Below, piece by piece: positions 17,763-52,803 of a stretch of DNA of 64,000 nucleotides. How positions within the stretch are numbered: the first letter of the stretch is position 1; every line of letters starts with the position of its first letter. Both the position numbers and the translations under genes were made by a program. The stretch comes from Escherichia phage EcWhh-1: sequence record MH791409.1, one strand, 5' to 3'. Under the pieces are notes generated by a model, which saw only the letters and a program-made list of their open reading frames with translations, searched no databases and had not been told where the DNA came from.

Positions 17763-17778
17763 AAGGCCCGAAGGCCTT
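17763..17778 (-). terminator. hairpin AAGGCC-CGAA-GGCCTT (UUCG loop on transcript)
   Basis: inverted repeat between the ligase operon and alt copy 2. Confidence 0.5.
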
Positions 17779-41890: not shown

Positions 41891-44800
41891 ATGGCTGATA
41901 TTTTAAAACCTGCATTCCGTGCTACATCCGGACTCGATGCTGCGGGCGAGAAAGTTATCAATGTTGCCAAAGCCGATTACAATGTACTAGATGATGGCGT
42001 CAACGTTGAATTCTTTATAGATGAGAACACCATCCAGGCGTACGACGAGACGCGCGGATATAAGAAAGGGTTTGCAGTAATCCATGACCAACGTATTTGG
42101 GTTGCTCAACGTGATATCGCTGCACCAGCTGGAACTTTTGTACCTGGTTATTGGACCGCTACCCGTACTGACCCTAAATGGATTACAGTAGCATCTCCTA
42201 CACGCCAGCTGGCTTCCGGTGAATATATCGCAGTGGATTCTGCTGCTAGCTTTACTACATTTACCCTGCCTCCTAACCCTACTGATGGCGATACCGTCGT
42301 AATCAAGGATATCGGTGGCCGTGTAGGTTATAATGAAATCAAGGTTCAATCTAGTTCTGCTCCAGGCGGTGGTAATCAGAAAATTGTTCGATTTGGTAAC
42401 CAGTTCTCTGAAACTCTGATAACCAAACCTTTTTCTTATAACATGCTTATCTTTGCTAACCGCCTTTGGCATTTCTGGGAAGCCGGTAACGAAGAACGTG
42501 GTATTCGTGTAGAGCCTAACACTGCACAGTTCCAATCACAAGCAGGTGATAACGTTTTACGTCGTTATACTTCAGGTGCAGTAATTAAATTTACTCTTCC
42601 CAAGTATGCGAACCAAGGTGACATGGTTAAAACCGTAGATATCGATGGTCTTGGAAGTAAGTTCCACTTAATCGTTGAAACCTTTGATGCATCGTCTTCA
42701 TTAGGTAAGCCTGGCCAGCATAGCATGGAATTCCGTACCTCTGGTGATGGGTTCTTTGTTTATAACTCTGTTGAAAAAATGTGGTATGTTTGGGACGGCG
42801 ACCGCCAAACTCGTCTGCGTGTTATTCGTGATGACGTAGAACTTTTGGCTAACGAAAGTATTATTGTTTTTGGTGAGAACAATTCCACACCTCAAACAAT
42901 TAATATCACGTTACCTACCGGTGTAGCTATTGGTGATACTGTTAAGATTGCTCTGAACTATCTTCGTAAAGGCCAGACTGTAAATATCAAGGCAGTTACT
43001 GGTGATAAAATTGCATCTTCTGTTCAGTTGCTTCAGTTCCCTAAACGTTCGGAATATCCACCAGACACTGAATGGGTATTGGTTGATTCATTAACCTTTA
43101 ATGGTAATATCAGTTATACTCCGGTTATTGAGTTGAGTTATATCGAAGACCATGTAGAAGATAAAAACTATTGGGTTGTTGCTCAGAACGTTCCTACGGT
43201 AGAACGTGTGGATTCTAAGGATGATTTAACTCGTGCTCGTCTCGGTGTTATTGCCCTTGCGTCTCAGACCCAGGCAAACGTTGACCATGAAAATAATCCT
43301 GAAAAAGAACTTGCAATTACTCCGCAGACTTTAGCCAATCGTGTTGCCACTGAAACTCGTCGTGGTATTGCTCGTATTGCTACTACTGCTCAGGTGAACC
43401 AGGACACAACCTTCGCATTCCAGGACGATTTGATTATTTCTCCTAAGAAATTAAACGAACGTACTGCAACCGAAACTCGTCGTGGTGTAGCCGAAATTGC
43501 TACGCAACAGGAAACTGATTCCGGTGTTGACGATACCACCATTATTACTCCTAAGAAGCTACAGACGCGCCAGGGCACTGAAAGTCTTTCAGGTATTGTA
43601 AAATATACCTCTACGGTAGACACCACTCCTGCGACTGCTAGGGACACTGTAGGTACTAACGTTTATAATAAGAACGTAGGCAATTTGGTTATTTCTCCTA
43701 AAGCTTTAGACCAATATAAAGCTACTCAAGCCCAACAAGGTACGGTATATCTTTCTACCCAGTCAGAAGTTAATACCGGACAATCTGCTAGCGGATTTGC
43801 TAACAGTGCAGTTTCTCCTGAAACGTTGCATGCCCGTGTGGCTCTTGATACTCGTACAGGGTTAATTGAAATTGCTACGCAAGTAGAGACCGATACTGGA
43901 ACAGATTATACTCGTGCGGTAACGCCTAAAACGTTAAATGATAGGAAAGCTACGGAAGGATTGACTGGTATTGCTAGAATTGCAACCCAAGCAGAATTTG
44001 ATGCAGGCACGTTAGATAATGTTATTTCAACTCCGTTGAAAATTAAAACAAGACTTAATGATACTGCTAGAACTTCTGTCTCAGCAGCCAGTGGTTTGAT
44101 TGAATCAGGAACCTTATGGAACCATTATACACTAGATATTAGAGAAGCAAATGAGACCCAACGTGGTACCGCTCGTCTGGCTACCCAGACCGAAGTCAAT
44201 GTTGGCACCGATGACAAAACCATCATCACTCCTTTGAAATTACACTCTAAAAAATCTACTGAAAGTTCTGAAGGTATTATTCGTGTTGCAACGAATACCG
44301 AAACCACTGCAGGAACTTCTAAAGTTCTGGCTGTAAGCCCTTCTGGTTTAAAATATGTAGTACAGACCGAAACCACTTGGGAAGCTACTGCACTTCGTCG
44401 TGGATTTGTTAAATTGACCGAAGGTGCTTTGACTTACTCAGGAAATAAAGTTACCGGTTCTGGTGTTAAATTTAACTCAGGTACAGGCCTTTATGAGAAC
44501 GACGATACTGTTCTGAATGCAGCCAACTATCCTAAAACAGGTTATGCGGTTTCATCTTACGAGATGAATAAAACTTTACAGAACTTTTTACCTATAAATG
44601 CTACGGCTGTGAACTCTGAGAAATTGGATGGTCTGGATTCACTTCAGTTCATTCGTAGAGACGTCGACCAAACGGTTAATGGTTCTTTAACCCTGACCAA
44701 ACAATTGAACCTGGCAGCCCCTCTGGTGTCTTCTAGTACTGCTACATTTACGGATGTTACAGCTACTAATTCTACCTTTGGTACAGTGAACGTTGTTAAC

Positions 44801-45862
44801 GGAACCAATAAATGGAAAATAACATCTCCATCTACCGGAACTACATTAACGATTGGCGATACTACTAACGTATTGACATTAAACACTGCTACAGGTAATG
44901 TTGCTGCACTTAACAACCTTAGCGCTGGTAATGATGTTCAAGCCAAAAATAACTTTGTGTTAAATGGAAGAACTATCGCAACCACCACTGGTGAAGCTTC
45001 TGGTGCTACATTGACTTTAGGCGATAACTCACAGAATTTAGTGCTCAAAACTCTTGATGCTGGTAATATCATAGCAAATGGCGGTGGTGCATTTAAAGTT
45101 CTTACCGAGAAAAACGCAGTAGAAATTGTAGACAGAAACTTTGTTAACCAAGCAGGTGATACAATGTCCGGTGTACTCCGTGTGAATGCTCCGGTTCGTG
45201 TATTTGGTACTAAGCCTACATTAGCTTCTCAGGTTCCTACGGCAGAGACAGTTGGCTTCTGGTCTGTTGATATCAATGACGAGGCCACTTATAGTAAGTT
45301 CCCTGGGTATCATAGAATGATATTACGTCGTCATATAACTATTGATACAATTCAGACCAAGCCACCTTCGGTGACGGATGAAGTTTGGAAAGCCTCAGGC
45401 TGGTTGACGTTAGATGGAACTTTTAGTTCGCCTGAAATACATTATCTGAATGAGGATGGTACTGAAGGAGCCCCAGTTTTAGGCTCTAATGATGAAAAGC
45501 TTAGAGGCCAATGGTTTGATTTCTTTGATAGAGATAAAAACGAAATTAAATACCCTGGTACGTTAACCCAGTTTGGTAATACATTGGATTCGTGTTATCA
45601 AGATTGGATTTGTTATCCTGTAGGTTTGAATGGTGGTACCATTCGTTATACCCGTACTTGGCAGAAAAATAAAAATGAGTGGACGGATTTTGCTATGGTT
45701 TATACAGCAGCTAACCCGCCTACAGCCAATGACGTTGGTGCTTTACCTGCAGATAATGCCACCATGAAAAACATTACAATCCTTGATTGGTTACGTATTG
45801 GTAATGTTCGTATTATCCCTGACCCAGTCACTAAATCCGTTAAGTTTGAGTGGATTGAATAA
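41891..45862 (+). CDS. 34: long tail fibre proximal subunit gp34
   Basis: 1323 aa (T4 1289 aa), repetitive beta-rich; synteny 34-35-36-37. Confidence 0.88.
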   Translation: MADILKPAFRATSGLDAAGEKVINVAKADYNVLDDGVNVEFFIDENTIQAYDETRGYKKGFAVIHDQRIWVAQRDIAAPAGTFVPGYWTATRTDPKWITVASPTRQLASGEYIAVDSAASFTTFTLPPNPTDGDTVVIKDIGGRVGYNEIKVQSSSAPGGGNQKIVRFGNQFSETLITKPFSYNMLIFANRLWHFWEAGNEERGIRVEPNTAQFQSQAGDNVLRRYTSGAVIKFTLPKYANQGDMVKTVDIDGLGSKFHLIVETFDASSSLGKPGQHSMEFRTSGDGFFVYNSVEKMWYVWDGDRQTRLRVIRDDVELLANESIIVFGENNSTPQTINITLPTGVAIGDTVKIALNYLRKGQTVNIKAVTGDKIASSVQLLQFPKRSEYPPDTEWVLVDSLTFNGNISYTPVIELSYIEDHVEDKNYWVVAQNVPTVERVDSKDDLTRARLGVIALASQTQANVDHENNPEKELAITPQTLANRVATETRRGIARIATTAQVNQDTTFAFQDDLIISPKKLNERTATETRRGVAEIATQQETDSGVDDTTIITPKKLQTRQGTESLSGIVKYTSTVDTTPATARDTVGTNVYNKNVGNLVISPKALDQYKATQAQQGTVYLSTQSEVNTGQSASGFANSAVSPETLHARVALDTRTGLIEIATQVETDTGTDYTRAVTPKTLNDRKATEGLTGIARIATQAEFDAGTLDNVISTPLKIKTRLNDTARTSVSAASGLIESGTLWNHYTLDIREANETQRGTARLATQTEVNVGTDDKTIITPLKLHSKKSTESSEGIIRVATNTETTAGTSKVLAVSPSGLKYVVQTETTWEATALRRGFVKLTEGALTYSGNKVTGSGVKFNSGTGLYENDDTVLNAANYPKTGYAVSSYEMNKTLQNFLPINATAVNSEKLDGLDSLQFIRRDVDQTVNGSLTLTKQLNLAAPLVSSSTATFTDVTATNSTFGTVNVVNGTNKWKITSPSTGTTLTIGDTTNVLTLNTATGNVAALNNLSAGNDVQAKNNFVLNGRTIATTTGEASGATLTLGDNSQNLVLKTLDAGNIIANGGGAFKVLTEKNAVEIVDRNFVNQAGDTMSGVLRVNAPVRVFGTKPTLASQVPTAETVGFWSVDINDEATYSKFPGYHRMILRRHITIDTIQTKPPSVTDEVWKASGWLTLDGTFSSPEIHYLNEDGTEGAPVLGSNDEKLRGQWFDFFDRDKNEIKYPGTLTQFGNTLDSCYQDWICYPVGLNGGTIRYTRTWQKNKNEWTDFAMVYTAANPPTANDVGALPADNATMKNITILDWLRIGNVRIIPDPVTKSVKFEWIE

Positions 45863-45870
45863 GAGGTATT

Positions 45871-46992
45871 ATGGAAAGATTTATGGCAGAATTTGGACAA
45901 GGATATGTCCAGGTTCCTACATTATCTGAAAACAATGCTGTAAGGTATAAACTTAGTATAGCAGGTAGTTGTACTAAGTCTACCACAAAAGCATATGTTA
46001 AATTTCAAGATGGGGACTTTGGTCCCCAGAATTTTCAAAATGGACTAAACCTTATAGAAATTGATGTTAGTGCCGAACCTAAAGTGGTGGCTAACAAAAC
46101 TTATAGCTTTACAAAAGATTTTGATGTTATCTCTGAAGCTTTTATTACTTACATAAGTTCAATACCGGCCAATAGAATAGTTTGTTTAGTATCTTCCGGT
46201 AGATTAAATGCTTCGCAAAATCTTATTGATTGGTTCCGTGCAGCAGGAAGTACCGCATTTCCATCTAAATGGCTAATAGACCGCTTCGAGCCGTCTTATT
46301 CGGCCTTTTACGTGTCTGGTAGAAATACTATAGTGATGGAACATGTCCTTTATAATGACGGGGTGTTTGTTGAAGATGTTTCTACCCCGTTAGAAGTTGT
46401 TTTTGACGATATCAGTGATGTTGGCGGCACCGGGTATCCTATAAGAATAGTGGAAGATGAAAACACTTATCTAAGTAATGATGGAGAGGAAATAAAACGT
46501 TTCCCTACTGAATCTCCTACTACTCCTTGCGCCGATTATAATATGAAGCCTGGAGAATTCTTTTATCTTAAATTCCAAATGATGTGTGACCAGGAATTAA
46601 AAGATTTAGGGACCTCTCAGATGTCTGTTAGATTTTTTAATGCCTCAGGTGCTTTAACAGGGTCGGTTAATATGGAAGTTCCACCTAATGTCCCTGCTGG
46701 GTCTTGGATGACTTTTGAGCGGGTAATTGAAGTTCCTGCTAATACTGAAACATTTACATTGTATGCAAGAAAAACAGTGGCCGATGGAGTCGGTGGTGTA
46801 CGTAATGTGATGTTCGGGGAAGTATCAGAGCCAGAATCTCAACCTAAATTGGCCGAATTTGGTGTAAATGGTATTCGTATGAATTTCGGTACCGAAACAA
46901 AGAATATGGGTACTACCATAGCCCAGTTATACGATAAAACAGGTACTAAACCAGGACAGGTTTGGGTGTCTGAATTTAGAGAAAAATATTAA
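45871..46992 (+). CDS. 35: long tail fibre hinge connector gp35
   Basis: 373 aa (T4 372 aa); synteny. Confidence 0.8.
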   Translation: MERFMAEFGQGYVQVPTLSENNAVRYKLSIAGSCTKSTTKAYVKFQDGDFGPQNFQNGLNLIEIDVSAEPKVVANKTYSFTKDFDVISEAFITYISSIPANRIVCLVSSGRLNASQNLIDWFRAAGSTAFPSKWLIDRFEPSYSAFYVSGRNTIVMEHVLYNDGVFVEDVSTPLEVVFDDISDVGGTGYPIRIVEDENTYLSNDGEEIKRFPTESPTTPCADYNMKPGEFFYLKFQMMCDQELKDLGTSQMSVRFFNASGALTGSVNMEVPPNVPAGSWMTFERVIEVPANTETFTLYARKTVADGVGGVRNVMFGEVSEPESQPKLAEFGVNGIRMNFGTETKNMGTTIAQLYDKTGTKPGQVWVSEFREKY

Positions 46993-47008
46993 GGAACCTT
47001 CGGGTTCC
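46993..47008 (+). terminator. hairpin GGAACC-TTCG-GGTTCC after gene 35
   Basis: UUCG tetraloop hairpin then T-run; the same hairpin occurs inverted at 55284-55299. Confidence 0.65.
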
Positions 47009-47068
47009 TTTTTCGTTTTCTACGGCCATAAATATATAAAAGGCTATAACTCCCAAAGGAAACTCAAA

Positions 47069-47716
47069 ATGGCAGATTTAAAATTAGGTTCTACAGCAGG
47101 AGGTTCGGTATTATGGCACCAAGGTAATTTCCCCTTAACGCCTGTATCAAATGACCTTCTTTACAAAACATATAAAGTTTACACCGAGTATAATAAACCT
47201 CAAGCAGTTGATAACGATTTCGTTTCAAAAGCTAACGGCGGTAATTATAAGAACAACGTGTATTTTGAAAAAGGTTTGACCTTTAATGATACTAATGGAT
47301 ATGGTATTAAATTAGGAGCAAGAACCGGCGGGGCTCCGTTCACAGCTTCTTTCCGTATTAAAGGTGCTTTTGGATATGAAACGGAAGATGGTACTCCGTT
47401 TGTGATATTTGACCCAAGTAAAGTAGTGGGTGCTAAACGTCTTACCGTAATGGGTGATTCATTATTCCGCCAAGTATATGATGAATCGGGCCGCGTATTC
47501 AGCCCTGGCAACACCCCTACTAAGGCCCAAGTTGGATTGTCATTAGTAGATAACGCAAAACAGGTCCAAATAAATAATACTGACATGCAAATAATGGATG
47601 GAGTGCTAGCGGCTCCTAACTTTATTTCACGGAATCCGGCCTCTGGTGCAGGACACGTTCCTCGCTTTGACCAGATTGTTCAAAAAGATTCTATTCAAGA
47701 TTTTGGTTATTATTAA
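47069..47716 (+). CDS. 36: long tail fibre distal subunit connector gp36
   Basis: 215 aa (T4 221 aa); synteny. Confidence 0.8.
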   Translation: MADLKLGSTAGGSVLWHQGNFPLTPVSNDLLYKTYKVYTEYNKPQAVDNDFVSKANGGNYKNNVYFEKGLTFNDTNGYGIKLGARTGGAPFTASFRIKGAFGYETEDGTPFVIFDPSKVVGAKRLTVMGDSLFRQVYDESGRVFSPGNTPTKAQVGLSLVDNAKQVQINNTDMQIMDGVLAAPNFISRNPASGAGHVPRFDQIVQKDSIQDFGYY

Positions 47717-47724
47717 GAGGCATT

Positions 47725-50700
47725 ATGGCTACTTTAAAACAGATACAATTTAAAAGAAGTAAAGTAGCTGGTGTACGTCCTACGCCAGCGCAGTTGGCTG
47801 AAGGCGAGCTGGCTATTAACTTAAAAGACCGTTTGTTATTTACCAAAGATGACACTGGAGCGATTATCGACCTTGGCTTTGCTAAAGGTGGTAATATCGA
47901 CGGAAACGTTATTCATAACGGTAACTACAACCAGACCGGCGATTATGCCCTGAAGGGTGCTTTTACCCAAACAGGTAGTTATACGACATCCGGAAGTATA
48001 ACAGCAAATGGCGATATCACAGCAAAATCTCGCCTAATGACAGATAACGGTGAAGTTCTTGTACGGGGTGCAGGAACTACCCACGTTCGATTCCAGGATT
48101 TGGCTGATGCGCGTGAAAGAGGCATAATTTATTCTCAAAACCGTGCTGGGGATACCAAGCAAATCTTAAATGTTCGTGTTCAGGATTACACTAATTCAAC
48201 ATCTAATATTTTTGCATTCAACGGTGACGGTTTATTTTATGCTCCATCTATTTCTGGTGGAACATCGGTAAAATCTCCAATAATTTATACTAATAAAGTT
48301 ATTACCGACGGTAAAGCCGCCGGCGATTACGATATATCTTCATTATCAAATAACACTCCATTGGCAGAAAGCGAAACGGCTATTAACCACCTCCGTGTTA
48401 TGCGAAATGCTGTAGGAGCAGGTATTTTCCACGAAGTTAATGTTAATGACGGAATAGCCTGGTATTCCGGAGATGGCTTAGACACTTATCTTTGGTCGTT
48501 TACCTGGTCCGGTGGATTGAAAGCCGGTCATTCTATTTCTGTAGGTCTTCCAGGTGGCCCTAAAGGATATTCTGAATTAGGGACGGCTTCAATTGCTCTT
48601 GGTGACAATAACACAGGTTTGAAATGGAAACAAGACGGCCAGTTCCATACAGTTAATAATGGAGCTTATACTTTACTTACAACTCCGACTGAAGTTACAA
48701 GCCTTAAACAGTTAGTTGCTGGTTATTCAACCAACGGTTCTGATTTAATTCTTCCTACAGCTCAAAACTATCCATTAGTTATTGTTAATACTACTAATGA
48801 TAAAAACGGCTTTGGTGATGGACAGACTCTTTTAGGTTATCATCAGAGTGGTAAATACCACCATTATTTCCGTGGTAAAGGTGTAACAAACGTTAACACT
48901 GATGGTGGGTTGTTGGTTACTCCTGGTAACGTTGAAGTCCGTGGTGGTTCGGTTAATATTGACGGTCGTGGTAACGCTTCCACTGTGATTTTTAAAGGAA
49001 GTACCACAGGATATAGTTCAGTTGATAATATAGAGCTCAAAGGTTGGGGTGACACTTTTAATACGGTAGGTGGTTCTCGTAAAAACGTATTGGAAACATC
49101 TGATGCTACCGGCTGGATGCACTATATTCAACGAACTACAGCAGGTAAAGTCGAATCTTATTTAAACGGCACGATGAACATCGTCGAAGGATTGTCTGTC
49201 AGTCAAGATACATCCTTAAAACGCAATCTGTATGTTTCCAATGAAATTAAAGTCCGCGCTGCTAGTGGTCTTCGTATTTGGAATGATAAGTATGGTGTTA
49301 TTTTTCGAAATTCAGAAGACCAGCTGCATATTATCCCAACCAATGCTAATGCTGGTGAAAGTGGCGGATTGGGTCCATTACGCCCATTAAGTATTATGTT
49401 AGACACTGGTCGGGTTAAAATCCCTAACTTAGAAGCTAAGCAGGTTTCAGGTGTATTGGAATTCATCACCACTCACGGCTCCTCTTATGCCAACCAGAAT
49501 ACGACTAAAGCCCCGTTGTATCAAACATTAGATTCTGCGTCTGCTCAAGCATTCTATCCTATTACTAAGCAGAAAAATACTGTTTCGAATGTAACTGTTA
49601 CTCAAGGTATGGACCGAACTACAAGTGAATACCGAATTGTTGCTCAAGGTGATTTGCTTGATGATGGTGATGATACAGGATTAAAATATTGGCGCTTTAC
49701 CAAAGAAGGTAACTTCATGGCTCAGAACCGCTTATATGCCGGTACAGCTTTCATGGATACCGAGGGTAATATTGTTGGTTCTATTTGGAACAAGTATAGC
49801 GGTGCTACTAACCTTGACGCAGCGGTGAATACTCGTGTTGGTAAAGGCGGGGACACAATGACAGGCCGCTTAACTCTTAAAACCAATTCAGACGCTATTG
49901 TTATTGATTATCCGGCAGATGAAGCGGGTTATGTTAAGGGTAAAAAAGGTGGTGTTGATAACTGGTATATAGGTAATGGTGGTGCTGATAACGGTTTAGC
50001 CTTCTGGAGCTTCCAATCCCAAGGTGGTATCAATATTAACCCGAATGGCGAGGTTATTTTATCTCCACAAGGTGCTTCAGTATTCAATGTAAACCGAGAC
50101 CGTATTTATATGAACGGTTCCAACTGGATTGCACATAAATCTGGTGCATGGGGTGACCAATGGGGTTTAGAAGCACCTTATTTCCTTGAGTTTGGTAGTG
50201 TGGGTGAAGACAGTTATTATCCTATTATTAAAGGTAAATCAGTAATTACTGGTCAAGGATATACTACTTCTGTTGAGCTTGGTATTAGACGTACACCTCA
50301 AGCATGGGGACAAGCGATAATTCGTGTAGGTAATGCCGAGCGCGGCGACGGTCCTGTAGGTATTTTCGAATTCCATTCTAGCGGACTATTCTACAGCCCT
50401 ACTATGGTTCAAACTCCTGCAATCGGTGTTGGTACTGTTAACGGATTAGGTGCTCCTAGTATTGCAATTGGTGATAATGATACAGGCTTATCACACGGTG
50501 GTGACGGCCGAATCAATATGGTTGCCAATGGGATTCATATTGCGTCATGGTCCAGCTCATACCATATCCATCAAGGTCTTTGGGATACCACTGGCGCTTT
50601 ATGGACTGAGCAAGGAAGAGCTATTATGTCTTATGGTCATCTTGTTCAGGCAAACGACAGCTATTCTACATATGTCCGTGACGTTTATGTCCGTTCTGAT

Positions 50701-51030
50701 ATTCGTGTTAAAAAGGACCTCGTTAAATTTGAAAATGCTTCTGATAAGCTTTCTAAAATTAACGGTTACACTTATATGCAGAAACGTGGAATGGACGAAG
50801 AAGGTAATCAGAAATGGGAACCTAACGCTGGTTTAATTGCTCAAGAAGTTCAAGCTATTTTACCAGAATTAGTTGAAGGTGACCCTGACGGTGAAGCTTT
50901 ACTTCGTTTGAACTACAACGGTGTAATTGGTTTAAATACAGCTGCAATCAACGAGCATACTGCAGAAATTGCAGAACTCAAATCAGAGATTGAAGAGCTT
51001 AAAAAATTGGTTAAATCATTGTTGAAATAA
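47725..51030 (+). CDS. 37: long tail fibre distal subunit gp37 with C-terminal intramolecular chaperone domain
   Basis: 1101 aa; C-terminus (SDIRVKKDL...[17 protein letters not shown]...[19 protein letters not shown] + coiled coil) resembles auto-cleaving tail-spike chaperone domains. Confidence 0.85.
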
Positions 51031-51035
51031 TAAGA

Positions 51036-51049
51036 GGGGCTTAGGCCCC
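51036..51049 (+). terminator. hairpin GGGGC-TTAG-GCCCC between 37 and 38
   Basis: GC stem-loop immediately after the gp37 stop. Confidence 0.45.
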
Positions 51050-51061
51050 TTGGAGGTTTAT

Positions 51062-51835
51062 ATGGCAGTTGAAGGACCGTGGGTAGGATGGTCTGCAAGG
51101 GTACAAACTGGAGACCCTTGGATGGCAGGAGCAGCCGTAAGATTAAGAATGGGTGTTCCGTTTTGGATGAGTAATATGATAGGTCGATCTGTTGAAGTAA
51201 TTCACACACTTGGGGCAGATCATAACTTTAACGGACAATGGTTTAGAGACCGTTGTTTTGAAGCCGGTGGTGCTCCTATCGTGTTTAACATAACTGGGGA
51301 CTTAGTATCTTATACTAAAGACGTTCCATTATTCTTTATGTATGGAGATACCCCTAACGAATATGTTACTTTGAATATTCATGGTGGTGTTCATATGTGG
51401 GGCCGAGGTGGCAACGGTACAGTAAATGGAAACCCAGGCACTAATGGTGGTGACGTAATCCAAAATGATATTGGTGGACGACTTCGCATTTGGAATTATG
51501 GTGTGATAGCCTCCGGTGGTGGCGGCGGCGGTGGCGTATCATTACAGAATAGTTGGCCTGCAAATTCTACAGCAGGTGGTGGAGGCGGCAGACCATTTGG
51601 TCTCGGCGGCGGTGGTGTTAATTGGCCAGGCGGCAATGCTAGTTATGTTGGTCCAGGTGGCGGTGGTAATGCAAGCCAATTTGGCGGTGGCAATGGTGGT
51701 GATGCTGGAGGTTGGGGCGGAGATGGATGGGGTAAAAACTTATCCAGGTCAGGTGGTGGTGCTCCTGGTAGAGCAGTATTCGGTTCCTCCCCATCATGGG
51801 GCGCTACAGGCACTATCTACGGCTCTTGGTTATAA
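51062..51835 (+). CDS. 38: T2-type tail fibre adhesin gp38 with polyglycine-rich motifs
   Basis: C-terminal half has GGGGGGG, GGGGG and GGGG runs separated by short variable segments; ATG (MAVEG) with GGAGG RBS. Confidence 0.85.
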
Positions 51836-51851
51836 TACGAAAGTATTAAAT

Positions 51852-51859
51852 TATAAATA
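51852..51859 (+). promoter_or_regulatory. late promoter TATAAATA for holin t
   Basis: exact late consensus 19 nt upstream of the t ATG. Confidence 0.6.
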
Positions 51860-51877
51860 TCTTTAAAGGAGAAAAGT

Positions 51878-52531
51878 ATGGAACCAAAAGTAGGATTTTC
51901 ATTATCAGACCTACTTTTTGGACTTCTTGATAGAATTTTTAAAGATACTTCTTCCGGGAAAGTAGTTTTTTCCCGGGTCCTAGTCGTAATATTATTGTTC
52001 TTTATGGCATTAGTTTGGTATAAAGGCGAGTATATTCTAAACTTTTATAAAGAGACAACTTATGCCTCTTATACTGAAATGATTAGACAAGACCAGGACA
52101 ATAGATTTAAAATTGCGGCTATCGAGCAGCTCCGAATAGTGCATTCTTCTTCAGGCGCAGACTTCACAGCAATATATTCTTTTAGACCAACCAACATGAA
52201 TTATTTTGTGGACATGGTTGCTTATGAGGGTAAATTACCGGAAACGGTAGACGCAAAAAATACGGGAGGGTTTCCAATTGACAAAACGTCAGTAGAATAT
52301 ATGGCGGGAGTTAACGGGAACTATTTTGAATCAAGTACCGAAACTGTATTCCTTCCTACAAAGAAGAAAACACAATTCACGTATATGTTTTCATGCCCGT
52401 TTTTTAATTTGGATAACATCTATGCCGGCTCGATATCATTATATTGGTATGATATCAAACCGGATTTAGGATTTCCTAGACTTTCGTCTATGTGTGGTCA
52501 GGCTGGGAGAACATTAGGTCGAACTCGTTAA
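51878..52531 (+). CDS. t: holin T
   Basis: 217 aa (T4 218 aa); matches T4 T as recalled (N-terminal TM, FNLDNIYAG). Confidence 0.9.
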   Translation: MEPKVGFSLSDLLFGLLDRIFKDTSSGKVVFSRVLVVILLFFMALVWYKGEYILNFYKETTYASYTEMIRQDQDNRFKIAAIEQLRIVHSSSGADFTAIYSFRPTNMNYFVDMVAYEGKLPETVDAKNTGGFPIDKTSVEYMAGVNGNYFESSTETVFLPTKKKTQFTYMFSCPFFNLDNIYAGSISLYWYDIKPDLGFPRLSSMCGQAGRTLGRTR

Positions 52532-52803
52532 AAATTGGAGGTATACATCATTAGATAACGATGTATATCTTCATACCCTTCATTAAATTGCTCAATAAGA
52601 GTATCACGTTCATCTTCAGTTAAAGACTTAAAGAGTTTATTAAAAGATAGGCCGTTAAGTTCCTTTCCATGTTCATTACGAATACCCAACTCATTCAAAA
52701 AGGCAATAAACTCATCACGGCGCTGCATGATGTCTTCACAATCCGTTTTAATCAAAATGGAAACAATAGTAGCAATTTCGGAAACGATTTCAATTTTAGT
52801 CAT
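52528..52803 (-). CDS. asiA: anti-sigma70 factor AsiA
   Basis: 91 aa; matches T4 AsiA (IAFLNE...EQFNEGYE.I.RYL.MYT). Confidence 0.9.
   Translation of the reverse strand: MTKIEIVSEIATIVSILIKTDCEDIMQRRDEFIAFLNELGIRNEHGKELNGLSFNKLFKSLTEDERDTLIEQFNEGYEDIHRYLMMYTSNF

Follow-up and report, generated by a model that had tools for sequence, protein, structure and literature searches.

The 64,000-nucleotide (nt) stretch of Escherichia phage EcWhh-1 analysed here (the window; coordinates are on the + strand unless stated) contains genes 37 and 38 of the long tail fibre, which very probably form a receptor-recognition module of the ordinary T2/S16 type in a Dhakavirus (JS98-like) coliphage, working by the five-part mechanism proposed below. 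In this module, gp37 would end in a self-cleaving chaperone and gp38 would be the adhesin. The reading is carried by the identities of the genes, their motifs, homology to solved structures, the identity of the adhesin to that of a phage with a determined receptor, the conservation of a hairpin between the two genes and the layout of the operon; we found no sequence feature that contradicts it. By DNA comparison EcWhh-1 belongs to Dhakavirus (JS98/JS10 group), with flanks 94-96% identical to those of UP19, MN04, JS10 and IME281. An exact-sequence look-up returned the EcWhh-1 entries QAY00004.1 for gp37 (100% identical) and QAY00005.1 for gp38, which is also identical to AWD91035.1. Both sequences are already public and annotated, and there is nothing new in the module; a literature search on ‘EcWhh-1’ found no paper. 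Features are listed in Table 1.

The gp38 adhesin

Along its entire length, the Pfam model GP38 (PF05268) matches gp38 (model positions 1-218 of 218; E 7e-81, 271.6 bits against a cutoff of 25), as does Gp38_N (PF21721; positions 1-40 of 40; E 3e-19, 69.2 bits, cutoff 25). Two structures align as well: the receptor-binding domain of PP01 gp38 (9V85; E 5.7e-76, 67% identity over gp38 amino acids (aa) 36-255) and S16 gp38 (6F45_D; E 5e-49, 50% identity, residues 1-257). Together with the match of gp37 to the other 6F45 chain, described below, these results bear out an earlier note on this DNA (the sequence-only reading), which had called the locus a T2/S16-type module. Gene 38 lies directly downstream of gene 37 across a 31-nt spacer, an arrangement also found in nine annotated relatives.

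The true start of gene 38 is the ATG at 51062. A mechanically called open reading frame (ORF) start, the TTG at 51050, was rejected, since a GGAGG Shine-Dalgarno (SD) sequence lies 5 nt upstream of the ATG and the resulting N-terminus, MAVEGPWVG, aligns with residue 1 of S16 gp38. Three Trp prongs plug S16 gp38 into the gp37 tip, giving a 3:1 gp37:gp38 complex (PMC6851490). W7, W20 and W35 of EcWhh-1 gp38 are invariant in an alignment of EcWhh-1, RB69, Bas47, fPS-2 and S16.

Glycine accounts for 68 of the 257 residues of gp38 (26%), 48 of them in the C-terminal half, and for 50 of the 130 residues (38%) between aa 111 and 240. The earlier description of this half, oligo-glycine runs with short variable segments between them, holds: there are six runs of 3-7 Gly (G7 at 152-158, G5 at 172-176, G4 at 182-185 and 199-202, G3 at 208-210 and 231-233), and 39 of the 45 glycines found in S16 from residue 105 onward are kept. 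The polyglycine-II helices of the S16 ‘PGII sandwich’ are made up of the glycine-rich motifs of this region (PMC6851490); from the 67% and 50% identity to 9V85 and 6F45_D, we infer that EcWhh-1 gp38 would adopt the same kind of three-layer polyglycine-II sandwich fold. At the DNA level the glycine motifs appear as direct repeats of 12-21 nt of the GGTGGYGG type, which fits the published picture of exchanges taking place at or close to the conserved motifs (PMC3157838).

The glycine-codon region of gene 38 also shows a local rise in GC (0.48) and a GC skew of +0.29, both due to GGN codons. Two other-frame ORFs within gene 38 (51516-51866 on the + strand and 51643-51813 on the - strand) were rejected as artefacts of GGN-codon runs, and a further spurious long ORF lies over the same region at 51639-51797 on the - strand.

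The gp37 tip and its intramolecular chaperone

The extreme C-terminus of gp37 matches Peptidase_S74 (PF13884, ‘chaperone of endosialidase’) at aa 991-1050 (model positions 1-57 of 58; E 8.9e-13, 48.8 bits, cutoff 22), with model position 1 falling on S991, and aa 907-1101 align with the S16 gp37 chain 6F45_A (E 1.2e-46). In S16 the last 113 residues of gp37 are reported to be removed by autocleavage at DLNVS^SDRRIKK, which bares the surface on which gp38 docks (PMC7917993), and the gp37 of T2 and T6 has been described as ‘proteolytically cleaved’ (PMC3157838). The EcWhh-1 motif DVYVR|S991-D-I-R-V-K996-K aligns with this published site, and S-D-x-R-x-K is invariant in all 10 sequences compared (EcWhh-1 and nine relatives, among them fPS, RB69, RB51 and Bas47). 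The autocleaving domain of MYRF (7dc3) gives a weak match to gp37, aligned on the same Ser-x4-Lys motif. Following what is established for endosialidase and MYRF, we take S991 and K996 to be the putative catalytic dyad. The claim of an auto-chaperone C-terminus, also made in the sequence-only reading, is upheld by the Pfam match and the aligned motif; autocleavage is predicted between R990 and S991, which would release the last 111 residues as the intramolecular chaperone (IMC) and leave a mature gp37 of aa 1-990.

Immediately before the predicted cleavage site, the gp37 tip (aa ~932-990) is 78-94% identical to RB69 at the aa level, against 24-66% upstream, and marks the start of a block conserved across genera. 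We predict that this tip becomes the gp38-docking surface after release of the chaperone.

Receptor loops and the OmpF assignment

Gene 38 of EcWhh-1 has 0 nt differences from that of IME281, and the protein is 100% identical. The receptor of IME281 was shown by experiment to be OmpF: mutants that resist the phage have mutations in ompF, the phage fails to infect a strain deleted for ompF, its adsorption constant drops from 8.7e-10 to 7.6e-11, and complementation restores both infection and adsorption (PMC6499177). As EcWhh-1 carries the adhesin gene of this OmpF-dependent phage without a single nucleotide change, we assign OmpF to EcWhh-1, a prediction made with high confidence. The related adhesins point the same way. 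RB69 (gp38 92% identical) and RB51 (90%) use OmpF (PMC3157838), as do FL31 (90%) and FL33 (85%; PMC12032242), Bas47, also named AlbertHofmann (86%; PMC8594841), and fPS-2 (86%; PMC7917993); FL34 is another OmpF user (PMC12032242). The practical gain is small yet concrete: the receptor of EcWhh-1 can be predicted from sequence alone.

Five receptor loops, A-E, were mapped from the PP01 crystal structure onto gp38 and comprise 33 residues in total. Of the nine substitutions that separate EcWhh-1 gp38 from JS10, which together with MN04 has the nearest allele, five fall within these residues, and allele differences concentrate in loops A, D and E. That the variable segments between the glycine runs are host-range determinants, as had been proposed for this locus, is established in the literature (PMC3157838, PMC12892980, PMC12032242), and the positions of the JS10 differences agree with it.

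Relative to JS10 and MN04, gp38 aa 196-207 (51647-51682) carry the changes D196V, A201G, Y203N and T204A. Across codons 201-205, 9 of 15 nt differ from JS10, including a switch of serine codon family from TCC to AGC, and the cluster fits better with a small recombinational patch than with stepwise mutation. In a search for its donor, the exact 20-mer was found in IMG/VR only in an IME281 contig; N203 and A204 are part of this patch, which was seen only in EcWhh-1 and IME281. Within the same loop, Q206L in HVS3 suffices to switch RB51/RB68 from OmpF to OmpW (bioRxiv 10.64898/2026.04.02.716166), and EcWhh-1 gp38 retains Q206, the OmpF-type residue. In passing, the RB68 gp38 deposited in GenBank (KM607004, 4201-4974) is identical to that of RB51 and has Q206, while the preprint reports that its own RB68 stock has L206, the cause of its OmpW specificity; deposited sequence and laboratory stock therefore differ.

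A probable cassette common to three genera

The last ~120-170 residues of gp37 together with gp38 show 92-100% protein identity to phages of other genera, RB69, RB51 and FL31, whereas the remainder of gp37 is merely 24-66% identical to the same phages; aa 982-1101 of gp37 lie within the high-identity block. Gene 38 differs from that of RB69 by 89 synonymous and 20 non-synonymous codons. By these comparisons the tip, chaperone, hairpin and gp38 are evidently a cassette common to three T-even genera and under purifying selection, and it appears to be horizontally shared. On the EcWhh-1 sequence the high-identity block spans ~50518-51835.

Further upstream, gene 37 is itself a mosaic. Positions 47725-49374 and 50551-51030 are identical to IME281, as is all of gene 38 (100%), and the shaft patch between them (49375-50550) is not: parts of it are closer to JS10/MN04 than to IME281. 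A near-identical donor of the patch was not found in the phage collection, where the best match was MN04 at 90.7%. Such mosaicism is typical of T-even fibre loci (PMC3157838).

A conserved hairpin at the 37/38 junction

Genes 37 and 38 are separated by a hairpin that is real and under selection. Upstream it is flanked by the TAATAA double stop of gene 37 and downstream by the gene 38 SD, the stem ending one base before the SD, and it consists of six Watson-Crick pairs, AGGGGC/GCCCCT (51035-51050, five of them G-C), and a G-U pair (51034/51051) with a 4-nt loop (-13.2 kcal/mol). A hairpin occupies the same place in 27 of the 27 T2-type loci fetched, despite very different gp38 types, and ends 0-8 nt upstream of the gene 38 SD across these loci (1 nt in EcWhh-1). 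Its stem varies between GGGGC/GCCCC, GGGCC/GGCCC, GAGCC/GGCUC and GGGGGC/GCCCCC, and its loops are mostly UNCG (UUCG, CUCG, UACG), with UUCG in the Mosigvirus and Tequatrovirus copies and UUAG in EcWhh-1. In an alignment of 15 sequences, 94.4% of cells are paired and three of the six pairs show compensatory changes; the observed covariation score is equalled by none of 500 shuffles and exceeds that of every slid register. An Rfam scan of 46900-52600 at E<=1 gave no family covering the hairpin, and limited literature searches found no characterisation of the 37/38 junction element. The hairpin is the sole slightly under-explored element here.

In the sequence-only reading the hairpin was described as terminator-like and as separating the two genes. 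Its existence and conservation stand; the label terminator-like does not. On the + strand the 3′ flank is UUGGAGGUUU, the ribosome-binding site of gene 38, there is no U-tract 3′ of the hairpin, and a terminator consensus scan makes no + strand call. By comparison, the canonical intrinsic terminator after gene 35 (46991-47020), AAGGAACC-TTCG-GGTTCCTT followed by TTTCGTTTTC (RNA stem GGAACC-UUCG-GGUUCC), has the U-run TTTTTCGTTTTC. Next comes a late promoter close to consensus, CATAAATA, ahead of gene 36, so that genes 34-35 form one late transcription unit and genes 36-37-38 another. No + strand copy of TATAAATA occurs between 41858 and 51852, the only copies in the region standing ahead of gene 34 (41851) and of gene t (51852), and no late promoter of gene 38’s own was found in the 31-nt spacer, which holds just the hairpin and the SD. 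Transcription of gene 38 therefore reads through the hairpin, and because it must be read through, the hairpin is not an efficient terminator.

Its likeliest roles are protection of the mRNA 3′ end, partial attenuation or keeping the SD unstructured. A more speculative and unlikely idea is that the hairpin acts as a dosage device that sets the 3:1 ratio of gp37 to gp38, through partial attenuation, protection of the 3′ end of a processed gene 37 message or uncoupling of translation. If so, it would move with the tip, chaperone and gp38 as a functional part of the cassette.

GC hairpins with UUCG loops, a class first described in T4 mRNA (PMC4371310), recur across the window and are a genome-wide feature of EcWhh-1. 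Hairpins with CGAA loops on the + strand, that is UUCG on the minus strand, were noted at 17763, 21531, 22425, 38591 and 55282, and at least three of them (22425, 38591 and 55282) are followed by minus-strand T-runs.

Proposed mechanism

We propose that gp37 trimerises into the distal half-fibre, with the C-terminal Peptidase_S74 IMC of 111 residues (aa 991-1101) templating the folding of the trimeric tip. The IMC would then cut itself off between R990 and S991 by means of the Ser991/Lys996 dyad, and cleavage would bare a flat tip ending in DVYVR, onto which a single gp38 monomer would dock by W7, W20 and W35. The C-terminal half of gp38 would fold as a lattice of polyglycine-II helices whose five distal loops bind the porin OmpF, probably as a reversible first step of adsorption. 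Genes 36-37-38 would be co-transcribed late, with read-through of the 37/38 hairpin, which most likely stabilises or attenuates the mRNA and is not a terminator. Finally, the tip, chaperone, hairpin and gp38 would move jointly as a cassette across three T-even genera.

Alternative readings

A T4-type arrangement, in which gp38 would be merely an assembly chaperone absent from the virion and the gp37 C-terminus would be the receptor-binding tip, has practically no chance of being correct. Annotations of relatives (IME281, JS10, RB69) are alone in saying so, and a note in the RB69 record itself limits the assembly role to the T4 subfamily and calls the unrelated gp38 of the T2 subfamily an adhesin. 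The Pfam family that gp38 matches is named ‘Phage tail fibre adhesin’ and the structures that it matches (6F45_D, 9V85) are adhesins, gp37 ends in an S74 self-cleaving chaperone and not in a T4-like needle tip, and T4 gp38 is unrelated in sequence (PMC6851490); the family assignment effectively refutes the chaperone reading of gp38. It is also very unlikely, if somewhat less so, that the adhesin binds a porin other than OmpF (e.g. OmpW, FadL or OmpC) or needs a co-receptor. Suspicion could arise from the odd loop-D patch (V196, G201, N203, A204), close to residue 206, where specificity can switch, and from the differing gp37 shaft mosaic. The patch is unlike that of all other characterised OmpF binders, a single Q206L in the same loop moves RB51/RB68 from OmpF to OmpW, and RB69 and RB51 have additional dependencies, on FhuA and lipopolysaccharide (LPS). 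Against this, an identical gp38, loop-D patch included, is present in IME281, for which OmpF was strictly required on BL21(DE3) and complementation was shown, and Q206 is kept.

It is improbable, though less far-fetched than a change of porin, that the 37/38 hairpin is a working intrinsic terminator, either ending the gene 37 transcript or stopping antisense early transcription on the minus strand. Its GC-rich stem of 6-7 bp and its folding energy would suit such a role, the consensus scan calls the hairpin on the minus strand with the tail CTTATTATTT, and similar UUCG hairpins with T-runs act as terminators at other places in the window, one of them following gene 35. These points are outweighed by the + strand flank, which is the gene 38 SD where a U-tract would be expected of a terminator, and by the dependence of gene 38 on read-through. 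The T-richness of the minus strand is largely forced by the TAATAA stops and is weaker in other lineages (loci L025-L027), and the fPS-2 record annotates terminators nearby and none at the 37/38 junction.

Several caveats attach to the T2/S16-type, OmpF-binding module as we propose it. The cleavage of gp37, the presence of gp38 in virions and the binding of OmpF are, for EcWhh-1, predicted from homology and from the identical adhesin of IME281; the polyglycine-II fold is likewise drawn from sequence homology to two crystal structures; and what speaks to the function of the hairpin is its position and conservation. The gp37 shaft (aa ~550-940) is not that of IME281, and through this difference a secondary contact, for example with LPS, might in principle be gained or changed. 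FhuA and a full LPS core are further requirements of RB69 and RB51 (PMC3157838), and plaquing of FL31 drops by just ~1 log on an ompF mutant (PMC12032242).

Locus layout and annotation

PHROG 1699, ‘long tail fiber protein distal subunit’, matches gp37 end to end, and PHROG 2056 is also a full-length match. Downstream of gene t, on the opposite strand, lie the early genes asiA, arn.x and motA, named by synteny with annotated relatives. In gp35, the fibre hinge, aa 57-130 match the Pfam family ILEI (‘interleukin-like EMT inducer’) barely over the cutoff (28.8 against 27 bits, E 1.8e-6). The only match in the Rfam scan, to c-di-GMP-I inside gene t (52219-52278), reached 22.2 bits where the gathering score is 35 (E 0.47) and was taken as chance.

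Many database records still carry a wrong, T4-style label for the T2-type adhesin. IME281, JS10, RB69 and other records call it ‘distal long tail fiber assembly catalyst’, which is the function of the unrelated T4 gp38, and in the MN04 record gp37 and gp38 are both ‘hypothetical protein’.

Table 1. Coordinates of the fibre genes, module parts and neighbouring features in the EcWhh-1 window
Feature	Position	Strand	Extent or sequence	Basis or remark
Gene 34	41891-45862	+	1323 aa	PHROG, Pfam
Gene 35	45871-46992	+	373 aa	PHROG, Pfam
Gene 36	47069-47716	+	215 aa	PHROG, Pfam
Gene 37, long tail fibre distal subunit	47725-51030	+	1101 aa	ORF call, PHROG 1699
Mosaic patch in gp37 shaft	49375-50550	+	gp37 aa ~550-940	58-95% nt identity to IME281
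gp37 distal tip	50518-50694	+	gp37 aa ~932-990, ending DVYVR	Homology to 6F45_A; alignment with fPS DVYIR and S16 DLNVS tips
Intramolecular chaperone (Peptidase_S74)	50695-51027	+	gp37 aa 991-1101, 111 aa	Pfam PF13884; alignment with S16 cleavage site
Intercistronic RNA hairpin	51034-51051	+	Stem GAGGGGC/GCCCCUU, loop UUAG	Folding, covariation
Shine-Dalgarno of gene 38	51052-51056	+	GGAGG	Sequence; GGAG kept at all loci
Gene 38, T2-type receptor-recognising adhesin	51062-51835	+	257 aa	Pfam GP38 and Gp38_N, PDB matches
N-terminal attachment domain	51062-51181	+	gp38 aa 1-40; Trp prongs W7, W20, W35	Gp38_N
Glycine-rich region	51392-51781	+	gp38 aa 111-240	38% Gly; polyglycine-II sandwich equivalent
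Receptor loop A equivalent	51419-51436	+	gp38 aa 120-125, TVNGNP	Maps to PP01 loop A W119-I124
Receptor loop B equivalent	51542-51571	+	gp38 aa 161-170	PP01 mapping
Receptor loop C equivalent	51611-51625	+	gp38 aa 184-188, GGVNW	PP01 mapping
Receptor loop D equivalent	51668-51682	+	gp38 aa 203-207, NASQF, with Q206 (51677-51679)	PP01 mapping
Receptor loop E equivalent	51719-51739	+	gp38 aa 220-226, GDGWGKN	PP01 mapping
T4-type late promoter for gene t	51852-51859	+	TATAAATA	Marks end of 36-37-38 unit
Holin gene t	51878-52531	+	217 aa	Pfam Phage_holin_T

Comparison with known systems

IME281 (MH051913; Dhakavirus) has the same gene 38 nucleotide sequence, gp37 aa 1-550 and 932-1101, hairpin and SD, and the same gene order 36-37-38-t-asiA; it differs by the ~1.2-kb patch in the gp37 shaft. 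Among systems with solved structures, the S16 gp37(3)-gp38 complex (PDB 6F45; Dunne et al. 2018) has the same trimeric tip, autocleaved S74 chaperone and monomeric gp38, with the S-D-x-R-x-K cleavage motif in common and a gp38 of like architecture (Trp prongs, beta-helix, polyglycine-II sandwich). The residue before the scissile bond is Arg in EcWhh-1 and Ser in S16, neither the sequence nor the length of the loops is the same (EcWhh-1 has 5 more residues in loop B), and S16 binds Salmonella OmpC, whereas the EcWhh-1 type of adhesin binds E. coli OmpF.

The gp38 of the E. coli O157 phage PP01 (9V85; mBio 2026) shares the beta-helix and the polyglycine-II lattice, and each of its loops A-E has one counterpart in EcWhh-1. 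In PP01, loops D and E (G208, Y230) mediate binding to OmpC, and all five loops differ between the two proteins, as in loop D (NASQF in EcWhh-1, NTGTGY in PP01) and loop E (GDGWGKN and NPGAGYS, respectively). With the OmpF clade (RB69, RB51, Bas47, FL31/FL33, fPS-2), EcWhh-1 has 85-92% gp38 identity, identical or near-identical loops A, B and C, Q206 and the junction hairpin in common; RB69, RB51 and FL31 also have almost the same gp37 tip and chaperone. The members of this clade come from other genera (Mosigvirus, Tequatrovirus), carry UUCG in the hairpin loop where EcWhh-1 has UUAG, and have a loop-D neighbourhood, YDAPGGAGYTSQF, that differs from that of EcWhh-1.

The chaperone itself resembles the endosialidase-type IMC (PF13884; MYRF) in being a C-terminal domain of a trimeric fibre that opens with Ser-x4-Lys. 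It differs in what release would achieve: in EcWhh-1 this would make a docking site for a separate adhesin, and not merely mature a tailspike.

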